Origin: Nanoarchaeum equitans Kin4-M | GTDB lineage: Archaea; Nanobdellota; Nanobdellia; Nanobdellales; Nanoarchaeaceae | Reading direction: 5' to 3' | Assembly (NCBI GenBank): GCA_000008085.1 | Contig: AE017199.1 | Span: 360,001-392,000 of the forward strand | DNA: 32,000 nt | Shown here: one piece after another, positions 2,732-24,286 of the stretch | How the letters are laid out: each line of letters starts with the position of its first letter | Numbering within the stretch: position 1 is the first letter of the stretch | The notes under the pieces: generated by a model | The model's input: the letters and a program-made list of their open reading frames with translations, nothing else | Database searches by the model: none | Told to the model about the DNA's origin: nothing | Translations under genes and position numbers: made by a program

Positions 2732-2755
2732 ATAAATTAGGTAAACAATAATTTA

Positions 2756-2808
2756 AAATGATGAAGGTGATCCAGCCTGAATTATGATGACGAGAGGGTT
2801 AGCTGATT
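2756..2808 (+). ncRNA. C/D box sRNA (2'-O-methylation guide); D' guide complementary to the SSU rRNA 3' terminus
   Basis: Textbook archaeal architecture. C box AUGAUGA is at 2758-2764, followed by a 12-nt guide AGGUGAUCCAGC and D' box CUGA at 2777-2780. After a 3-nt linker come C' box AUGAUGA at 2784-2790, a 12-nt guide CGAGAGGGUUAG and D box CUGA at 2803-2806. Flanking AA/UU can close the terminal stem. Confidence 0.85.
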
Positions 2809-5707: not shown

Positions 5708-8700
5708 TTGGTGTATTATGATATACTAGCTAAGGAATTAGAAAAACTATATGAAATTGCTGAAAAAGCTAGAGCACAAGGATATGATCCAAAGGACATT
5801 GTAGAAATACCATTAGCTAATAACATGGGGGAAAGGGTAGCCCATTTAATTAGTGCTATCCATGAACAATTAGATGTAAAAAAGACAGCCGAACTAATAT
5901 TAGAATTAGAAAAACAGTATGGCTTTTTGGATTGGCGTGTTGGTTTAAAATTAATAGATTACGCATTAGAAGGAAAGCTAATTCCTTATGATGATATACT
6001 AAAAAGAATTGACTTAGGAGTAAGATTAGCCTTAGGTTATATAACTATGGGAGTTGTCTCAGCTCCTTTGGAGGGGTTAGTAGAGCTTAGGATAAAAAAG
6101 AGAAAAGATGGAAAACCTTATTTGGCTTTATACTATGCTGGCCCCATAAGGGGGGCTGGTGGTACTGCGGCAGCAGTTAGTGTTTTATTTGCTGATTATG
6201 CTAGAAAAAAAGCCGGTTTATATGAATATGACCCAACAAAAGAGGAAATAGAGCGCTATAAAATAGAAATCGATTCTTACCATAACAAAGTTGCGAGATT
6301 GCAATACAAACCATCAGACGAAGAAATAGAGTTCTTAGTAAAACATATACCTGTGGAAATTAATGGAGACCCTACTTCTGATAAAGAAGTACCTTCCTAC
6401 AAAAATCTAGAAAGGGTAGAAACTAATAGAATTAGGGGAGGGATGTGTTTAGTTATTGCTGAGGGTATAGCGCAAAAAGCCAAAAAGATCTATGGTAAAA
6501 TAACCGAGTGGGGTAAAGAATTCGGTTTAGAACATTGGGAATTTTTGGGAGAATATTTAAAATTGCAAAAAGAGATACAAGCCAAATTAGCTGCAGAGTC
6601 TGGAGGTGAAATAGAAGGTAAAGAAATAAAAAGAAAAATAACTTTGTTTTTAGATGAAATAAAAAAAGAAGAAATAACAGTTAAATATCCCACTCCTGCA
6701 GGTAAATACTTACAAGAAATAACCGCAGGGAGACCAATATTTTCTTTGCCTATGGCCATTGGAGGGTTTAGATTAAGGTATGGTAGATCTTTCGCTACAG
6801 GTTTTGCTACCTCTGGCATACACCCTGCGACTATGTTTTTAACCTATGGATTTTTAGCTATAGGCACACAAATGCGTGGGGAAAGGCCTAAAAAATCAAC
6901 AATAGTTACTCCTGTAACTTCTTTGCATCCCCCAATAGTTAAACTAAAAGATGGCACAGTAAAAAAAGTTCATTCTGTTGTCGAAGCAATAAAAATAGCA
7001 AATGATGTTGAAGAAATACTATTTTTAGGCGATATTTTAACAGCTTTTGGAGATTGGTTAAATGAAAAAGCTAATCTAGTGCCTTCCCCTTATGTTGAAG
7101 AATGGTGGATACAAGAGTTTGATAGGGCAGCAATGAAAAAAACCGATTATAAAATAGAATTCGATGTAATGAAGCCAAGAAAACTATTCAAAATAGAAGG
7201 GTTGGAAAATTTGTCTCAATATTTAGGAATTCCCAAAGATAGATTAGAAGAAATAATTAGGAAACCATTCTCTAGGAAACCAACTATTGATGAAGCAATA
7301 ACTATTAGTGAAAAGCTTGGAATTCCATTACATCCAGAGTATACTCCATTCTGGGTTCATATAACAAAAGAAGAGCTAATAAAATTAATAGAAGAGCTTA
7401 GGAAAGCTAAAATTCAAAATAACAAAATATATTTCCATGAATCGCAAAAAGAGCTAAAAGCAATATTAGAGAAACTGTTTATTGAACATTTTAGGGAAGG
7501 AGAGTACTTTTATATAAACGAAAGTATGACAAAATCTTTGTTATACCAATTAGATAATCTAAATTTAGAAAAGGCAAAAAAAGAATTCGATAATGCTATA
7601 GACGCTTTAGATTTGGTTAATAGGTTATCCCCAATAGAGATAAGGGATGTTGCCGGAGTATATGTAGGGTTTAGAGCGGGAAGACCAGAAAAAGCTAAAA
7701 TGAGAGAAATGACTGGTAGGCCCCATGGGCTATTCCCTGTTGGAGAAGAAGGTGGAAAAATGCGTAATGTTATAGAAGCCTATAACAAAGGCTATGTTAA
7801 AGCAGAATTTGCTTTGTATTATTGTAATCATTGTAAGCGCTATACTATTTATAGAAAATGTGAAGTTTGTGGCAATAAAACTAAAGAGGTTTATGTTTGC
7901 AAAGAAATAATAAATAGACTAAAAACCTCTCTATTCAAACAATATAAGGATTGGAAAAAAGTTGAAGAAGAAATAGCTTCCCATCTATGGGCAGAGGCCG
8001 TAACACATTCTAAAAATAATTGTAGAGAGCCTAAAAGATATAGTCTAATAAAACTAAACATAAAGCATTATGTAGATAGAGCTGTTCAAAAGTTAAAACT
8101 ATTTAATATACCAAAATTAGTTAAAGGAGTTAGAGGTACATCAAATAAAGACCATATAGTTGAAAGGCTAGAAAAAGCCTTTTTAAGGTCTGTAAGTGAT
8201 GTTTATGTAAACAAAGATGGCACTATAAGATATGATGGTACTCAAATACCCTTAACACATTTTAGGCCAAAAGATTTAATTGGTGTTACAATAGAAAAAC
8301 TAAAAGAATTGGGTTATACACATGACATATATGGAAACCCATTGGAAAGGGAAGATCAAATATTACAACTAAAACCCCAAGATATAATATTACCCTATGG
8401 TATATTAGTTAAATCCCGTTTAAATAAAAACAAAATAGTAAGAACAGATGCGGCAGAAGCATTTAAGAAAGTAGCAAACTTTGTTGACGAAGAATTAAAG
8501 AGGTTATACAACTTAGAACCTTATTATAACATAGAAAAAGCCGAAGACCTAATAGGAAAAATAGTTTTTGGTATTGCTCCCCATACATCTGCAGCTGTAG
8601 TAGGTAGAATAATAGGGTTTACCCCAATACAAGGGATAATTGCCCACCCGATATGGCATGCGGGCCAAAGAAGAAATTGCGATGGAGACGAAACCGCAGT

Positions 8701-11544: not shown

Positions 11545-11896
11545 GAGAGAAATACAATCTTTAATATGGGAAAAGGGTTTTGCTTGCTTAAGGATAGCAG
11601 GCTCTGGCTCCTCTCGATATCCAGCGGCAGATTTAATAGCCAAAATAAAGGACTTATATATTATAGAGGTAAAATATACTCACAAAGATTATGTTTATAT
11701 AAAAGATGAGCAATTAGAGCAAATTGAATTGCTATGCAAAAAATTTGAAGCTAAACCTTTAATAGTGATAAAGTTTTCCCGAAAAGGAATCTATTGTACT
11801 ACGAATTTGCGAAATAAATATACTATAAATGATGGAGATTTAGTTAATTTTAAAGAATGGCTATCTGCAGCGCCTGGTTTCTTCACTAATCAGTAA
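11519..11896 (+). CDS. hjc: Holliday junction resolvase Hjc
   Basis: VEREIQSLIWEKGFACLRIAGSG...ADLIA....YIIEVKYT...VYIKDEQLEQIELLCKKFEAKPLIVIKF matches the Hjc core, including the catalytic E, D and EVK. It overlaps the dphB end by 26 nt. Confidence 0.8.
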   Translation: MKKISSNVEREIQSLIWEKGFACLRIAGSGSSRYPAADLIAKIKDLYIIEVKYTHKDYVYIKDEQLEQIELLCKKFEAKPLIVIKFSRKGIYCTTNLRNKYTINDGDLVNFKEWLSAAPGFFTNQ

Positions 11897-13187
11897 TCGG
11901 CAAACTCTTCATTGCTTTAATTTCTATACCCCTCTTTTTTAAAGCTTTCTTTAAGGTTAAAGCTAAAGTACCCTCTTTACAATAGATGCAATCTCCTTTC
12001 TTAGTTCTAATAAATTTCCAAATAGATATGGGGTTTTCGCAATAATCTAATTCCTCTTCATAACTTTTTATAGGCAAATTAGTTTTCGCTTCTTTTATTA
12101 AGCTATCTATATTTATGTCAATTTTGTCCAACCATTTTTTTATTATCTCTTCTTTAGGTTCTATAACAGTTTTCCTACCTAATGCACACATCTCTTTAAC
12201 TTTAATAACATAATCATATAAGCCCAATTCTCTTATATACTCTATTACTTCTTCTTTGTCTAATCCCGCTATAGGTCTAAATACACTTATGCTATCTAAG
12301 GTTAAGCTATCAATAGTTTCTAAGCTTTTTAGGGTTTGAGTACTTTTTTGCCCAATAGATTCCCCAATAAAGATAGATTTTAAACCTAATTTTTTTGCCA
12401 AAGCTTTAGCAGTCTTATGCATTATTATCTTAAGTAAGATTTGCCTGTATTTTTCTTCCACATTCATTAATAATTGGTAATAAACTTCGCTAAATGGTAT
12501 AGAAATAAAAATCGAATCTGGGGAGAATTCTTTTATTTTTTCATAAACTTCATATACAGTTTTTTCTATAAAATCGTCGAAAGGGTTAAAATAAACTATT
12601 ATTGGTATAACCCCCCTTTTGATAGCAAATATAGCTGTTAAAGTGGAATCAAACCCCCCAGAAAATAAAGACAAAGCTTTGCCTTCACTACCATAGGGCA
12701 AACCTCCTAGACCTTTTTCTTCCGAATAATAAATATAAACTTTATCTCTTATGTTTATTCTTATTATATTGTCAGGATTTTTTAGATTAACTTTTTTATC
12801 ACTATTTTTTTCTATATAAGAACCGACAATTTTGGCTATCTCTAAACTATTGTAAGGAAAATTCTTATCTGCTCTAATAACTTTTATTTTGAAAGTTTTT
12901 CTTGGTAGCCTTTTAGCCAATTCCAAAGCATATTTTTTTATTGATTCTAAATCTTTTTCTACTTCTAATGCAGGGTATATTTTATTTATTCCAGGAACGA
13001 GCTTTAGTTTTCTTATTATTTCTCCTACATCTCCTTTGAATATAAATAAACCCCTATCTATTTTTAACACATCGTAGGGAACTTTCCTTTTTATATCTTT
13101 AATTAATAGTTTAAGCAAACCTTTTTTGCTTCTTTCCCCTTTTAAGAATATTTCTCCCCAACTAGCTAGTACAGCATTATAGAACAT
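11886..13187 (-). CDS. thiI: tRNA 4-thiouridine synthase ThiI (THUMP + PP-loop ATPase)
   Basis: The N-terminus ...WGEIFLKGERSKK is a ThiI/THUMP-type start. A PP-loop SLFSGGFDST is present. 433 aa. Confidence 0.8.
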   Translation of the reverse strand: MFYNAVLASWGEIFLKGERSKKGLLKLLIKDIKRKVPYDVLKIDRGLFIFKGDVGEIIRKLKLVPGINKIYPALEVEKDLESIKKYALELAKRLPRKTFKIKVIRADKNFPYNSLEIAKIVGSYIEKNSDKKVNLKNPDNIIRINIRDKVYIYYSEEKGLGGLPYGSEGKALSLFSGGFDSTLTAIFAIKRGVIPIIVYFNPFDDFIEKTVYEVYEKIKEFSPDSIFISIPFSEVYYQLLMNVEEKYRQILLKIIMHKTAKALAKKLGLKSIFIGESIGQKSTQTLKSLETIDSLTLDSISVFRPIAGLDKEEVIEYIRELGLYDYVIKVKEMCALGRKTVIEPKEEIIKKWLDKIDINIDSLIKEAKTNLPIKSYEEELDYCENPISIWKFIRTKKGDCIYCKEGTLALTLKKALKKRGIEIKAMKSLPITD

Positions 13188-15350: not shown

Positions 15351-15403
15351 TTTCAGTTTGTAACTCTCTCGTCATTACTCAGCACGCCAAGAATTCATCA
15401 CTC
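15351..15403 (-). ncRNA. C/D box sRNA immediately 3' of radA, sharing its stop codon
   Basis: On the minus strand, C box GUGAUGA is at 15401-15395, followed by a 12-nt guide AUUCUUGGCGUG and D' box CUGA. After a 3-nt linker come C' box AUGACGA, a 12-nt guide GAGAGUUACAAA and D box CUGA at 15356-15353. The first UGA of the C box is the radA stop codon (15400-15398). Confidence 0.82.
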
Positions 15404-16354
15404 TGGGTCTCTTATACCTTCTTCAGTAATAACGAATGTTGTTTCTCTCTCTGGTAAGTGGGGCGAATCTACTAATCTGGCAATTCTTATACCTTTTTTA
15501 CCCTTTCTTAAGAATACTCTATAGGTTGATGCATGTGCTAATACATGCCCTCCAACGGCTTGTACTGAATCTAGGCCTGGAATAAAAGAATCTGGTTTAG
15601 CCATTACTTGGTTTGTTACATATATTGCCACATTATATAATTCGGCTATCCTTAATAAATCATGTACATGCCTTCCTAATTTGTGTTGCCTTTCTGCTAG
15701 CTGTCCTCTTCCTGTATATTCAGCTCTAAACAAAGCTGTTAAAGAATCTACTACAATTAATTTTATTGGTTCTCCTTTTCTTATTAGCTCTTCTGCTTTT
15801 CTCGCAGCAAGCATTTGGTGGTCTGTGTTAAATACTTTCATATGATACACATTTTTTAAAGCTTTCTTTGGATCTAAATCTAATGCTTCGGCCATCTGTT
15901 TTATTCTTTCTGGCCTAAATGTACCTTCTGTATCTATATATACGGCTTTCCCTTCTAATCCTCCTTGTTCTGGGGGTAATTGCACATCAACGGCTAATTG
16001 GTGGCCTACTTGTGTTTTACCAGAACCATATTCTCCATAAAACTCTGTTAATGCTGCGGTTTCTATACCTCCCCCCAATAGGGAATCTAAGTTTTTGGAC
16101 ATAGTCGTTATTCTAGCAGTTTTTTGCCTTTCCTCTAATACCTCTTCTGCTGTTTTAAATTCCAATAATCCTAATCTCTCCATCGCAGCTTCAATAATTT
16201 TTCTGGCTGTAGCTTCCCCAATATCTGCAGCTTCCATTAGTTCTTCTACACTCGCGGAAGCAATTTTTATTAATGAATCGTAACCAGCACTAATTAGTTT
16301 TTCAGCAGTTTTTGGGCCTACCCCAGGTAAAGATCTAATATCATCCTTAGACAT
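15398..16354 (-). CDS. radA: DNA repair and recombination protein RadA
   Basis: The N-terminal HhH motif ([17 protein letters not shown]), Walker [10 protein letters not shown], and [13 protein letters not shown] are present. I place the start at the ATG at 16354 ([13 protein letters not shown]). The ORF-track extension to 16375 begins with TTG and adds 7 non-conserved residues. Confidence 0.93.
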
Positions 16355-18493: not shown

Positions 18494-19786
18494 ATGCCAT
18501 CTCTGTGGGATTACCTAAATAAAGATAAAAAACCTGTTATAAAAAAGGTTGAACCTCCAAAAAAGAAAGAAATAAAAAGAGACATTCCATTGTTCATAAA
18601 ATATAGGCCAAAAACTTTAGATGAAGTGGAGAACCAAGAGCAAGCGAAACAAATTTTAAGAGATTATGTAATAAACTATAAGAAAAAATACAAAGGAAAA
18701 GCTTTATTATTGTATGGCCCACCAGGGACAGGCAAAACTTCCTCTGTATACGCTTTAGCCAATGAATTAGGCTATGAAGTATTGGAAGTTAATGCCAGCG
18801 ATGAAAGAGATGCTATACATATTCATCATATAGTAGGGGAAGCATCAAAAGGGAAACCTTTGTTTCATAAAGGTAGAATAATTTTGGTTGATGAAGTAGA
18901 CGGGTTAAGTGGTAAAGAAGACAGAGGGGGAGTAGGTGCATTAGTTAATATAATAAAACAATCATCATGGCCAATAATTTGTACTGCCAATGATCCGTGG
19001 GATCAGAAATTGAAAAAACTAAGGGAAATCTCTATAATGGTTGAATTCAAAAGGCTATCACCAAAACATGTATATAATGTGCTAAAAAAGATAGTAACTA
19101 ATGAGAAAATAAAAATTAGTGACAAAATTCTATGGGATATAGCCTATAAAAGCGGGGGCGATTTAAGAGCAGCAATAAATGATTTGGAAACAATAATAAA
19201 ATCTGGAATAATTGATGAAAACTTTGTAAAAGCTTTAGGAAATAGAGAACAAGAAATAGATATTTTCAAAGCATTAGGTATAATGTTCAAAACCGAAAAC
19301 CTCGCCACAGCAGTTTCAGCTTTTAACAATGTTGATTTGGAATTTGACGAAATATTCCCTTGGTTAGAGGAAAATATACCTGTGGAATATAAAAGGTTAG
19401 ACGATATTTATAGGGCATATTATTGGTTAGGAAAAGCAGACATATTTAGAAAAAGAATAATAAAAACACAACATTGGAGATTGTTGGTTTATGCCCAAAT
19501 CGATGCTTATGGGGGGATAGCTTTGGCTAAAAACAAAAAATATCCTGGTTTTACTAGATACCAACCGCCGAAAAGGTTAAAACTTCTAGCTCAAATGAAA
19601 GAAAAGCTAGAAAAACTTAGAGAGCATGTATCTAAATTGAGGGAAAAACTACATATGAGCAAAAGAGATATAATAAAATACTATGTTAGTTTTGCGTTAA
19701 AACTAAAAAACCTAAACAAAACAGTAGCAGACAAGTTCTTAAAAGCGATTGGGTTATCATTAAAAGAAATTGAAGAAATTCGCTAG
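18494..19786 (+). CDS. rfcL: Replication factor C large subunit
   Basis: The sequence runs KYRPKTLDEV, LLLYGPPGTGKTSSVYALANELGYEVLEVNASDERD, ILVDEVDG, then a Lys-rich C-terminal tail. This is the archaeal RFC-L order of motifs. 430 aa. Confidence 0.88.
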   Translation: MPSLWDYLNKDKKPVIKKVEPPKKKEIKRDIPLFIKYRPKTLDEVENQEQAKQILRDYVINYKKKYKGKALLLYGPPGTGKTSSVYALANELGYEVLEVNASDERDAIHIHHIVGEASKGKPLFHKGRIILVDEVDGLSGKEDRGGVGALVNIIKQSSWPIICTANDPWDQKLKKLREISIMVEFKRLSPKHVYNVLKKIVTNEKIKISDKILWDIAYKSGGDLRAAINDLETIIKSGIIDENFVKALGNREQEIDIFKALGIMFKTENLATAVSAFNNVDLEFDEIFPWLEENIPVEYKRLDDIYRAYYWLGKADIFRKRIIKTQHWRLLVYAQIDAYGGIALAKNKKYPGFTRYQPPKRLKLLAQMKEKLEKLREHVSKLREKLHMSKRDIIKYYVSFALKLKNLNKTVADKFLKAIGLSLKEIEEIR

Positions 19787-20366
19787 ATTTATAGGAATAG
19801 ACGATGGTTATTTCGTTAGAAATGTACATAAAAAAACAAAACTAATAGGAGCAATCACAAAGCATACGATATTGGATGGAGTATTGTCTAGAGAAATAAC
19901 AATAGATGGTGACGATGTTAGCGAAAAAATAATTGATATGATAAAAAATAGTAATCATTATTACCAAATTAGGGGGATAATTTTGTATGGCATAACCTTT
20001 GCCGGATTTAATATAGCGGACGTGGAATTAATATACAAAAATTTGGGTTTACCTATAATAATAGTAATGGAGCGCCCTCCGAAAGATATATTCTATAAAG
20101 CTATAGAAAAATACAAACCTAATGGGATAGAATTAATAAAAAAGGCTGGCCCCATATATAAAACAAAAACTCCTTTCGGTTATACATATTACCAAGTTTA
20201 TGGTATCGACAAAGACACTGCTTCTAATATAATAAATAATTTAGCAATAGTATCAAAAATACCAGAGCCTGCTAGGGTTGCTCATATGATTGCTAGAGGT
20301 GTAACTAAAGGGGATTCATCAAAACCACGGGCCGGCGGGGATTCGAACCCCGGACCTGCGGGTTAA
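19770..20366 (+). CDS. DUF99/UPF0215 family protein (EndoV-like fold)
   Basis: The N-terminus FIGIDDGYF and the overall size are typical of UPF0215. It has a 17-nt overlap with rfcL. The last 13 codons and the stop (..PRAGGDSNPGPAG*) are the antisense of the tRNA 3' half. Confidence 0.7.
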   Translation: MKKFARFIGIDDGYFVRNVHKKTKLIGAITKHTILDGVLSREITIDGDDVSEKIIDMIKNSNHYYQIRGIILYGITFAGFNIADVELIYKNLGLPIIIVMERPPKDIFYKAIEKYKPNGIELIKKAGPIYKTKTPFGYTYYQVYGIDKDTASNIINNLAIVSKIPEPARVAHMIARGVTKGDSSKPRAGGDSNPGPAG

Positions 20367-20390
20367 GAGCCTCGGCGGCCATCCCCCTGG
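20328..20390 (-). tRNA. Split-tRNA 3' half precursor: 27-nt GC-rich leader (20390-20364) plus tRNA positions 38-73 (20363-20328); most consistent with tRNA-Lys
   Basis: The minus strand reads CCAGGGGGAUGGCCGCCGAGGCUCUUA | A CCCGC AGGUC CGGGG UUCGAAU CCCCG CCGGCCC G, followed by UGGUUUU. It has a perfect T arm (5-bp stem, UUCGAAU loop), a 5-nt variable loop AGGUC, a 7-nt acceptor 3' strand and a discriminator G. There is no D arm or acceptor 5' strand anywhere upstream, where the sequence is AT-rich. There is no encoded CCA, and an oligo-U follows. The acceptor strand (implying 5' GGGCCGG), the G73 discriminator and a CUCUUA motif suggest Lys(CUU). Confidence 0.8.
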
Positions 20391-20405
20391 TTTGTATTTG
20401 TTAGC

Positions 20406-20417
20406 CATTTAAAAATG
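20406..20417 (-). promoter_or_regulatory. TATA box (CATTTTTAAATG on the minus strand) for the tRNA 3' half
   Basis: The UUUUUAAA core is at 20415-20408. This is about 25 nt upstream of the first G/C-rich leader nucleotides at about 20390, the spacing expected for an archaeal TATA-to-TSS distance. Confidence 0.55.
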
Positions 20418-22455: not shown

Positions 22456-22508
22456 CTATGAAGAAAGCCGCTACTCTGAATTTATGATGAAGAGCCTGGA
22501 TGCAGATC
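22456..22508 (+). ncRNA. C/D box sRNA with a variant C (AUGAAGA) and D (CAGA) pair, overlapping the 3' end of the reverse gyrase helicase-half gene
   Basis: C box AUGAAGA is at 22458-22464, followed by an 11-nt guide AAGCCGCUACU and D' box CUGA at 22476-22479. After a 4-nt linker come C' box AUGAUGA at 22484-22490, a 12-nt guide AGAGCCUGGAUG and D box CAGA at 22503-22506. The two deviations fall on the two nucleotides that face each other in the k-turn (U-U becomes A-A). Confidence 0.65.
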
Positions 22509-24209
22509 TATTCCTAATAGTTTAAGCTTAAACTCTAATGCTCTCAATAGTTTTTCATTATCGCTTAGAATTATAGATAAACCTTTAGTAATCCCTCCCG
22601 GATACATACGAGATGTTCTACCAGAGGCTTGTATGTAGGTTTTAACATCTGGTATTAGAATGTTAATACCATCTCCTCTCTCTAAAGCAATAAAGGGATT
22701 TTCTTCCAATTTTTTAATTATGTCTTCCCTATTAATTAATTCGAAAGATTTGTCCCTTAGATAAATAATATTTTTCCTTAACTCTTCTAAAAAGCCATCC
22801 AACTCTTTGTTTTGTTCTATAGCTTCTTCAACCATCTTTAGTGCACCAGTAGAAACCCTTTTTATCATATTATAGGTAGTATTTAATTTTTTCTTAAACT
22901 CTTCATCAGCGTAGTCAGATAATGTTGATGCTAATAACAATATTCTTCCTATTTTTGTTTCTTTCTCTTTTGCGCTAAACCTAAACCTTGGGATGCCAAC
23001 AAATATGGCATATTTAACTACATGGGGCAAATCTATACCTCTAACGATTAACCCATAATAATGAGCTACCCCTACTAATACATCTAATTCTTTGTTGGCA
23101 TATTTGTCTAATAATTCTATAGATTTACCTGAGTAAAATGCTTCTGCTTTTATGTTGTTTTCTTTTAAATATTGGGCTATTTCTTCTGCTTTTTCAATAC
23201 CATAATCTGTTGGTACAAAAACCAAACCACCGTTTCCCAATTTTTTAATTAATTCTAAAGTTTGTTTTTTATAGTCTCTCATCTCTGTATAAACATCAAT
23301 TATGTTTCTTATTGTTGTTTTAGCAGCTCCAACTTCGAAACCTAATAGTTCTCTAAATAGTTTTACCCTTAGCCCTCTCATAGAACCAGTTGCAGATGCC
23401 GCTATTAATATACCTCTTTGTTCTTTTCTAACTAATTCCTTTAATTGTTCTTCCATTTTTCTTATTTTTTCTAAGTCTTTTCCTGAAATTTTTAGCTTTA
23501 TTAATTGCATCGCTTTTTCTATTGTAGTTTCACTAAATCCTAATAGATATAAAATGCGATCGATATTTTTACTGCTTTTCATTATAGAATCTACATCATC
23601 GGCAAAAATTATATCGAAATAATTGTTTTTTAGCAAATCAAAATTCCTGCTTAAGAATTGGTTCGATGTTATTAGTATAGAAAATGCCCCATCTTTGATT
23701 AGCTCTTTTGCTTCTTTCTTTTGCTTGTTATTTCCATAGTATGCCACAATAATATTATCAAACCCAACCCTCTCGGCAAAAACATTTATCTTTTCATATA
23801 ATTGTTTAACCAAAGTTCTAGTTGGCACTATAATATATACCTTTTTACCTTTTTTACCCCAATATAGGGCATTTACTAAAGCGAAAGTGGTTTTTCCCAT
23901 TCCAGTAGGGGCTATTATAGAAAAAGAATATCCCTTATAAGCTCTAATGAACCATGCTCTTTGTGCAGACCAAGGTTTATTGTTTACAGCTTTGTAAAAG
24001 AATTCTTCAAATTCTTTTTTGGCTTTTTCTATGTTATAAATATTGGCCCAATCTTTTAGTTTATTGTTTTCCTTTAGATATTCGTAAACTTGTTCAATTG
24101 TGCCTTCCTCATAAGGGTAATCGTTTTCACATGGCAAACCCTTAATTAATCTTTCATTAGATATTCTCCCAGAACAATTGGGGCAAACATTATTATAATA
24201 GATTTTCAT
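22482..24209 (-). CDS. rgy: Reverse gyrase, helicase-like N-terminal half only (split gene)
   Basis: The N-terminal zinc finger CPNCSGR is present. PWSAQRAWFIRAYKGYSFSIIAPTGMGKTTF (Walker A), FADDVDS (DDVD box) and IQASGRTSR (motif VI) are co-linear with the first ~550 aa of full-length reverse gyrases. The ORF stops after 575 aa, and no Toprim/topoisomerase IA domain follows in any frame. Confidence 0.9.
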   Translation of the reverse strand: MKIYYNNVCPNCSGRISNERLIKGLPCENDYPYEEGTIEQVYEYLKENNKLKDWANIYNIEKAKKEFEEFFYKAVNNKPWSAQRAWFIRAYKGYSFSIIAPTGMGKTTFALVNALYWGKKGKKVYIIVPTRTLVKQLYEKINVFAERVGFDNIIVAYYGNNKQKKEAKELIKDGAFSILITSNQFLSRNFDLLKNNYFDIIFADDVDSIMKSSKNIDRILYLLGFSETTIEKAMQLIKLKISGKDLEKIRKMEEQLKELVRKEQRGILIAASATGSMRGLRVKLFRELLGFEVGAAKTTIRNIIDVYTEMRDYKKQTLELIKKLGNGGLVFVPTDYGIEKAEEIAQYLKENNIKAEAFYSGKSIELLDKYANKELDVLVGVAHYYGLIVRGIDLPHVVKYAIFVGIPRFRFSAKEKETKIGRILLLASTLSDYADEEFKKKLNTTYNMIKRVSTGALKMVEEAIEQNKELDGFLEELRKNIIYLRDKSFELINREDIIKKLEENPFIALERGDGINILIPDVKTYIQASGRTSRMYPGGITKGLSIILSDNEKLLRALEFKLKLLGIDLHPGSSS

Positions 24210-24235
24210 TTAACAATAACTGAGAGCAATATTAA

Positions 24236-24286
24236 AAATGCTGAACATCGGGTATACTGAATAGTGATGATTAGCTGTAAAGTTCT
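24236..24286 (+). ncRNA. Degenerate C/D box-like element (possible decayed or half-functional sRNA)
   Basis: It has the same 7-12-4-3-7-12-4 spacing as the 2756 sRNA. AUGCUGA is at 24238-24244, followed by a 12-nt ACAUCGGGUAUA and CUGA at 24257-24260. After AUA comes GUGAUGA at 24264-24270 and 12 nt UUAGCUGUAAAG, but then UUCU where a D box should be. The internal C'/D' pair is perfect, while the terminal C/D pair is defective. Confidence 0.3.

Follow-up and report, generated by a model that had tools for sequence, protein, structure and literature searches.

What is encoded by the short GC-rich element at 20328–20387, where the minus strand resembles only the 3′ part of a tRNA? The window (the whole 32,000-nt stretch of DNA that was analysed) is NC_005213 (AE017199) 360001–392000 of Nanoarchaeum equitans Kin4-M, such that a window coordinate is the genome coordinate minus 360000, and it contains proteins that exactly match NEQ430 (RFC large subunit), NEQ433 (ribosomal protein L3) and NEQ434 (the reverse gyrase helicase half). 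The original prediction, made from the letters alone, had read the element as a stand-alone 3′ tRNA half of the trans-spliced N. equitans type, preceded by a very GC-rich leader. Indeed, 20328–20387 has a GC content of 75%, compared with a mean of 31.5% (sd 6.5%) over all 60-mers of the window (z = 6.7), and ranks first among them, the next-best reaching 57%. The GC-rich element is no chance feature. The second most GC-rich 60-mer (57%) lies at 6123–6182 and contains CCCC/GGGGGG runs.

ARAGORN detected no complete tRNA in the whole 32 kb, and the half gene is the sole tRNA-related sequence in the window. Likewise, no Rfam family reached its gathering threshold anywhere in the window, and permissive scans returned only sub-threshold matches anchored on the T arm (mascRNA, tmRNA and tRNA). 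The Rfam tRNA model scored 14.9 bits against a gathering score of 29, which is low because half of the molecule is missing. The lack of an ARAGORN tRNA and of any Rfam match at gathering score, together with sub-threshold matches confined to the T arm, is as expected of a half-tRNA.

Read along the minus strand from 20413 to 20321, the locus consists of TTTAAA, a spacer, GGGGGATGGCCGCCGAG (20387–20371), GCTCTTAACCCGCAGGTCCGGGGTTCGAATCCCCGCCGGCCCG (20370–20328) and TGGTTTTGATG. The exon, GCUCUUAACCCGCAGGUCCGGGGUUCGAAUCCCCGCCGGCCCG, spans 43 nt (20328–20370, minus strand), ends at the discriminator and corresponds to positions 31–73 of tRNA-Lys(CUU), in line with the published start and size. 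In this exon, G31 pairs with C39, and C32-U33-C34-U35-U36-A37-A38 form a canonical 7-nt anticodon loop (CUCUUAA, 20369–20363, minus strand). The anticodon CUU (positions 34–36; 20365–20367, minus strand) is given by the sequence itself, by ARAGORN on a completed construct and by the published isotype. The perfect T arm that had been recognised at the outset, CGGGG-UUCGAAU-CCCCG, occupies 20352–20336 on the minus strand (positions 49–65), where the T arms of the Rfam models also align. It is followed, again as first read, by the acceptor 3′ strand CCGGCCC (positions 66–72; 20335–20329, minus strand) and the discriminator G73 at 20328, both of which have these roles in the ARAGORN cloverleaf. 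CCA is absent from the encoded 3′ end. The sequence 3′ of the discriminator is UGGUUUUGAUG, and a T-run (UUUU, 20321–20324, minus strand) ∼3–4 nt past the discriminator is likely to act as an archaeal terminator. A segment that includes the T arm, AGGUCCGGGGUUCGAAUCCCCGC (20357–20335), is identical to sequence upstream of sRNA8 in the N. equitans tRNA-Tyr.

The numbering of the half was examined by joining the 43-nt exon to a synthetic 32-nt 5′ part, upon which ARAGORN called a tRNA-Lys(ctt) with a standard cloverleaf; the 5′ part was designed solely by complementarity, with a generic archaeal D arm added, and the call therefore tests the numbering of the 3′ half and not the real 5′ half. The element encodes a partial tRNA that completes a canonical cloverleaf.

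Counted back 43 nt from discriminator G20328, the exon begins at 20370, and window 20370–20328 is genome 380370–380328 on the minus strand. For the N. equitans Lys CUU 3′ half, Chan, Cozen and Lowe (2011; PMC3218864, Table 1) give a 5′ start at 380370(−) and sizes of ∼60 nt (precursor) and 43 nt (mature). Their entry for the 5′ half is 308963(+) with ∼44/32 nt for precursor and mature part, and they place the ligation site of this tRNA at 30/31 (PMC3218864). Since strand, length, anticodon and coordinate all agree with the published entry, the window element is almost certainly the N. equitans split tRNA-Lys(CUU) 3′ half gene, joined in trans to a distant 5′ half. Organism, strand, 5′ start, mature size, precursor size, anticodon and junction are all identical, with no difference between the two, and the published 5′ half lies ∼71 kb away. 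The half coincides to the base with the published gene and is of the type that had been proposed. The locus is already known and, as anticipated should the source prove to be N. equitans, this is a rediscovery that adds no new biology. The 3′ half gene was reportedly described by Randau, Pearson and Soll in 2005 in FEBS Lett. Contigs carrying the locus from other samples (L001–L004) are 100% identical to the window; they represent the same strain and give no comparative signal.

A TATA box had been predicted upstream of the half, and a box A/TATA-like TTTAAA is present at 20413–20408 on the minus strand, separated from the leader by a 20-nt AT-rich spacer. G20387 lies exactly 26 nt downstream of its first T (20413). 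In N. equitans, the genes for tRNAs and tRNA halves have TTTAAA in their promoters at 26 nt upstream of the start, and a T-stretch downstream serves as terminator (Randau 2012, PMC3491384). With about one TTTAAA per 744 nt of the window, the exact 26-nt spacing is unlikely to be accidental. Judged by motif and position, the tRNA-Lys 3′ half appears to have its own archaeal promoter at the published spacing. RNA-seq found all 11 N. equitans tRNA-half precursors and mapped their termini, and the 5′ end of the 3′ tRNA-Lys half fell short of the annotated GC-rich stretch by a single nucleotide (A) (Randau 2012, PMC3491384). This end corresponds to a start at G20387, a 17-nt leader and a 60-nt precursor, in agreement with the sizes of Chan et al. 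2011. The leader is accordingly GGGGGAUGGCCGCCGAG (20371–20387, minus strand), the same 17 nt that remain when the 43-nt mature part is subtracted from the ∼60-nt published precursor. The mature spliced tRNAs were characterised earlier (Randau 2012, PMC3491384).

The extent of the exon and leader is where the original prediction went wrong. It had taken the half to be split at 37/38, containing positions 38–73 only and preceded by a 27-nt leader that starts with CCAGGGGG. A cut at 37/38 is the natural default, as four of the six trans-spliced tRNAs of N. equitans have it (PMC3218864), and neither reading alters the T arm, acceptor strand or discriminator. However, GCUCUUA, assigned to the leader by the 37/38 split, supplies G31, which pairs with C39, and the canonical loop bases C32, U33, CUU and A37. 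In addition, the published mature part, ligated at 30/31, has 43 nt instead of 36 (PMC3218864), and the RNA-seq 5′ end is the purine G20387, not C20390 (PMC3491384). The 37/38 anatomy was rejected, as the published 30/31 junction refutes it, and we regard it as very improbable. The half instead comprises positions 31–73, including G31 and the whole anticodon loop with CUU, and the leader is 17 nt (20387–20371); the 27 nt took in the untranscribed CCA (20390–20388) and seven exon bases. The leader length was wrong because a canonical 37/38 split was assumed and GCUCUUA was given to the leader. For the same reason, the partner search pattern that was suggested (positions 1–37 followed by GGCGGCCAUCCCCC) would be misdesigned, since the junction is at 30/31. 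A trans-spliced tRNA half can thus be recognised from raw sequence, and its anticodon content was missed through the 37/38 assumption.

A partial tRNA might also be a dead, functionless fragment left by an integration (att) site or by a tRNA gene that has decayed. Archaeal partial tRNAs of similar extent exist, covering ∼27–76 or 32–76 (Chan et al. 2011, PMC3218864, Table S3), among them partial tRNAs of positions 32–76 in Aeropyrum pernix. Such an origin would not account for the correctly spaced promoter and GC-rich leader that precede the half, for its detected transcript (PMC3491384) or for the published matching 5′ half (PMC3218864). Furthermore, a full-length orthologue exists in the nanoarchaeon Nst1 and the tRNA is therefore needed, and no integrase or repeat was noticed beside the half. 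Taken with this evidence, a dead fragment is more improbable still than the 37/38 split. The idea that the GC-rich stretch is just the 3′ end of the plus-strand ORF 19770–20366 (Endo_dU family), with an incidental likeness to tRNA, draws on mechanical ORF and gene callers that extend through 20328–20366 on the opposite strand, but is scarcely credible given that the Pfam domain has reached its end by residue 178 of 198, that the tail TKGDSSKPRAGGDSNPGPAG is low-complexity, as expected of the translated antisense of a GC-rich tRNA, that a perfect T arm with UUCGAAU, an acceptor strand and an anticodon loop are not products of coding constraint, and that even against coding regions the GC content stands out as extreme.

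The Endo_dU-family ORF (NEQ431-like, 19770–20366, plus strand) encodes 198 aa, with the Pfam domain at residues 5–178 and a G/P/S-rich tail of 20 residues that gives the C-terminal peptide ...SSKPRAGGDSNPGPAG. It is convergent with the tRNA-Lys half, and its last 12 codons and stop are antisense to the exon, with the TAA stop (20364–20366) complementary to U35-U36-A37. Gene callers likewise give 198 aa for this ORF in other assemblies, and the absence of any stop before the anticodon loop is probably the sole reason for the tail. Going by geometry, antisense pairing or convergent transcription at this overlap might couple how the two genes are expressed; alternatively, the free 3′ half might have a role of its own as a tRNA-like minihelix (GGGAUGG/CCGGCCC). 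We see only a slim chance of either.

The minihelix pairing also underlies one of the sub-threshold Rfam matches. The mascRNA-menRNA model aligned at 20329–20385 (minus strand) with 22.6 bits (gathering score 42.5), because GGGAUGG of the leader can pseudo-pair with the acceptor strand CCGGCCC to give a tRNA-like minihelix. The minimum-free-energy fold does not use this pairing, which is probably incidental to the GC-rich content. By itself, the 60-nt precursor was not more stable than shuffled sequence (z = +0.79). This lack of excess stability is expected of, and consistent with, an RNA that needs a partner, and it adds no independent support.

The trans-spliced 3′ half requires a 5′ partner, and the claim that none is encoded nearby held up: in the 32 kb, no 5′ half or leader complement was found, with pattern scans matching only the antisense of the element itself. 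A scan of a genome collection for the leader complement beside an acceptor strand gave no N. equitans among the matches listed (at least 120), which were high-GC bacterial chance matches. In metagenomes, a scan for a promoter, the acceptor strand and the full 14-nt complement yielded 0 matches. A redesigned metagenome scan based on the bulge-helix-bulge (BHB) geometry yielded 15, all chance matches on contigs of 53–77% GC. Either the collection lacks that part of the genome, or the predicted position of the junction is a little inaccurate. The neighbours of the 309-kb region are NEQ348 (histone), LonB, GatA, S28e and small orphans, and a query with the histone HMfB recovered only Methanobacteria among the matches listed (at least 120).

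To describe the junction, we modelled the 5′ half from the leader. A canonical hBHBh′ motif has two 3-nt bulges and a 4-bp central helix, with cleavage after the second bulge nucleotide. On this pattern, 20387–20377 (GGGGGAUGGCC) would form the trans-pairing helix h′, 20376–20373 (GCCG) would contribute to the central 4-bp helix H, and 20372–20371 (AG) together with G31 would make up the 3-nt bulge that holds the 3′ cleavage site. When applied to the leader, the hBHBh′ rules require exon 1 of the model 5′ half to end in G22-A23-G24/C25-G26-G27-C28/G29-G30 (GAG-CGGC-GG). The same end is required independently by the anticodon-stem complement (27–30 = GCGG) and a standard D stem (22–25 = GAGC). 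The model 5′ exon, of 32 nt, would end ...GAGCGGCGG, and the model trailer, one bulged base plus GGCCAUCCCCC, comes to 12 nt, equal to the published 44 minus 32. Drawn from this model 5′ half, the hBHBh′ contains standard pairs only. A canonical BHB is stated for the N. equitans tRNA-Lys junction (Chan et al. 2011, PMC3218864). For the complementarity of leader and trailer and the BHB junction of the tRNA-Lys halves, we draw on this literature, with which our model is consistent.

We propose the following route to the mature tRNA. Transcription would start at G20387, 26 nt downstream of TTTAAA, and run to near the T-run, giving a precursor of ∼60 nt that consists of the 17-nt leader and positions 31–73. 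The leader would pair in trans with a complementary trailer of ∼12 nt on the 5′ half, which carries positions 1–30 and is expressed from its own promoter (308963(+)). The acceptor stem and the remaining tRNA body would then form across both RNAs, with a bulge-helix-bulge at 30/31 in the anticodon stem. Removal of leader and trailer is predicted to fall to the heteromeric splicing endonuclease NEQ205/NEQ261, and an RNA ligase would join G30 to G31. CCA would be added afterwards, post-transcriptionally, because it is not encoded at the locus. A heteromeric (alpha-beta)2 endonuclease of N. equitans (NEQ205, NEQ261), able to cut relaxed BHB motifs, is known from published work (PMC2761253), and neither of its genes is in the window. 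We likewise rely on published work for where the 5′ half lies, for detection of the transcript, for endonuclease cleavage and for the joined, mature tRNA.

The window also contains a known split protein gene: NEQ434 (22482–24209, minus strand, 575 aa) encodes the stand-alone helicase half of a split reverse gyrase, and its partner, NEQ318, is ∼100 kb away. Five C/D box sRNAs, sRNA20–24, map to 2755–2808 (+), 11860–11917 (−), 15353–15406 (−), 22458–22509 (+) and 24218–24278 (+), each at its published genome coordinate less 360000 (Randau 2012, Additional file 2), with sRNA23 and sRNA24 flanking the split reverse gyrase gene (Randau 2012, PMC3491384). The preceding sRNA19 (genome 359412) is absent from the window. 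The Rfam scan of the window at gathering threshold reported none of the five.

Six N. equitans tRNAs are made by trans-splicing from 11 half genes (PMC3491384; PMC3218864). Like the other halves, the tRNA-Lys 3′ half has a promoter to itself and a GC-rich flank (here the leader), which by the published account is complementary to the partner and to no other half; the heteromeric splicing endonuclease and ligase would process it as they do the rest. It differs in the position of the junction. The junction is at 37/38 in the His, iMet and Glu(UUC/CUC) tRNAs and at 32/33 in that for Gln (PMC3218864), whereas the tRNA-Lys junction is in the anticodon stem (30/31) and not one base 3′ of the anticodon. 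As a consequence, the 3′ half of tRNA-Lys carries the whole anticodon loop. The split of tRNA-Lys in N. equitans is lineage-specific, since the sister nanoarchaeon Nst1 has full-length tRNA orthologues (∼85% identity) and no split tRNAs.

A close counterpart is the tRNA-Lys(CUU) that is split in Staphylothermus marinus and S. hellenicus and which shares the isoacceptor, the 30/31 junction and a canonical hBHBh′ (PMC3218864). Its halves, of ∼48/31 and 65/43 nt, are similar in size to those of N. equitans, and its trans-helix is 13 nt (PMC3218864). In contrast, Staphylothermus belongs to the Crenarchaeota, distant relatives of N. equitans, and its halves are ∼4.8 kb apart compared with ∼71 kb (PMC3218864). 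The shared 30/31 junction may reflect either common descent or convergence. Split tRNA genes lie at the heart of debates over how tRNA and tRNA introns arose, and their discovery, attributed to Randau and colleagues in 2005, is said to have been a landmark. Compared with the cis-spliced introns of archaeal tRNAs, the tRNA-Lys halves would use the same endonuclease motif (BHB) and ligation chemistry, the leader and trailer together amounting to an intron broken in two. Unlike cis-spliced exons, the tRNA-Lys exons of N. equitans reside on separate transcripts from distant loci, and a stable intermolecular helix is therefore needed to unite them.
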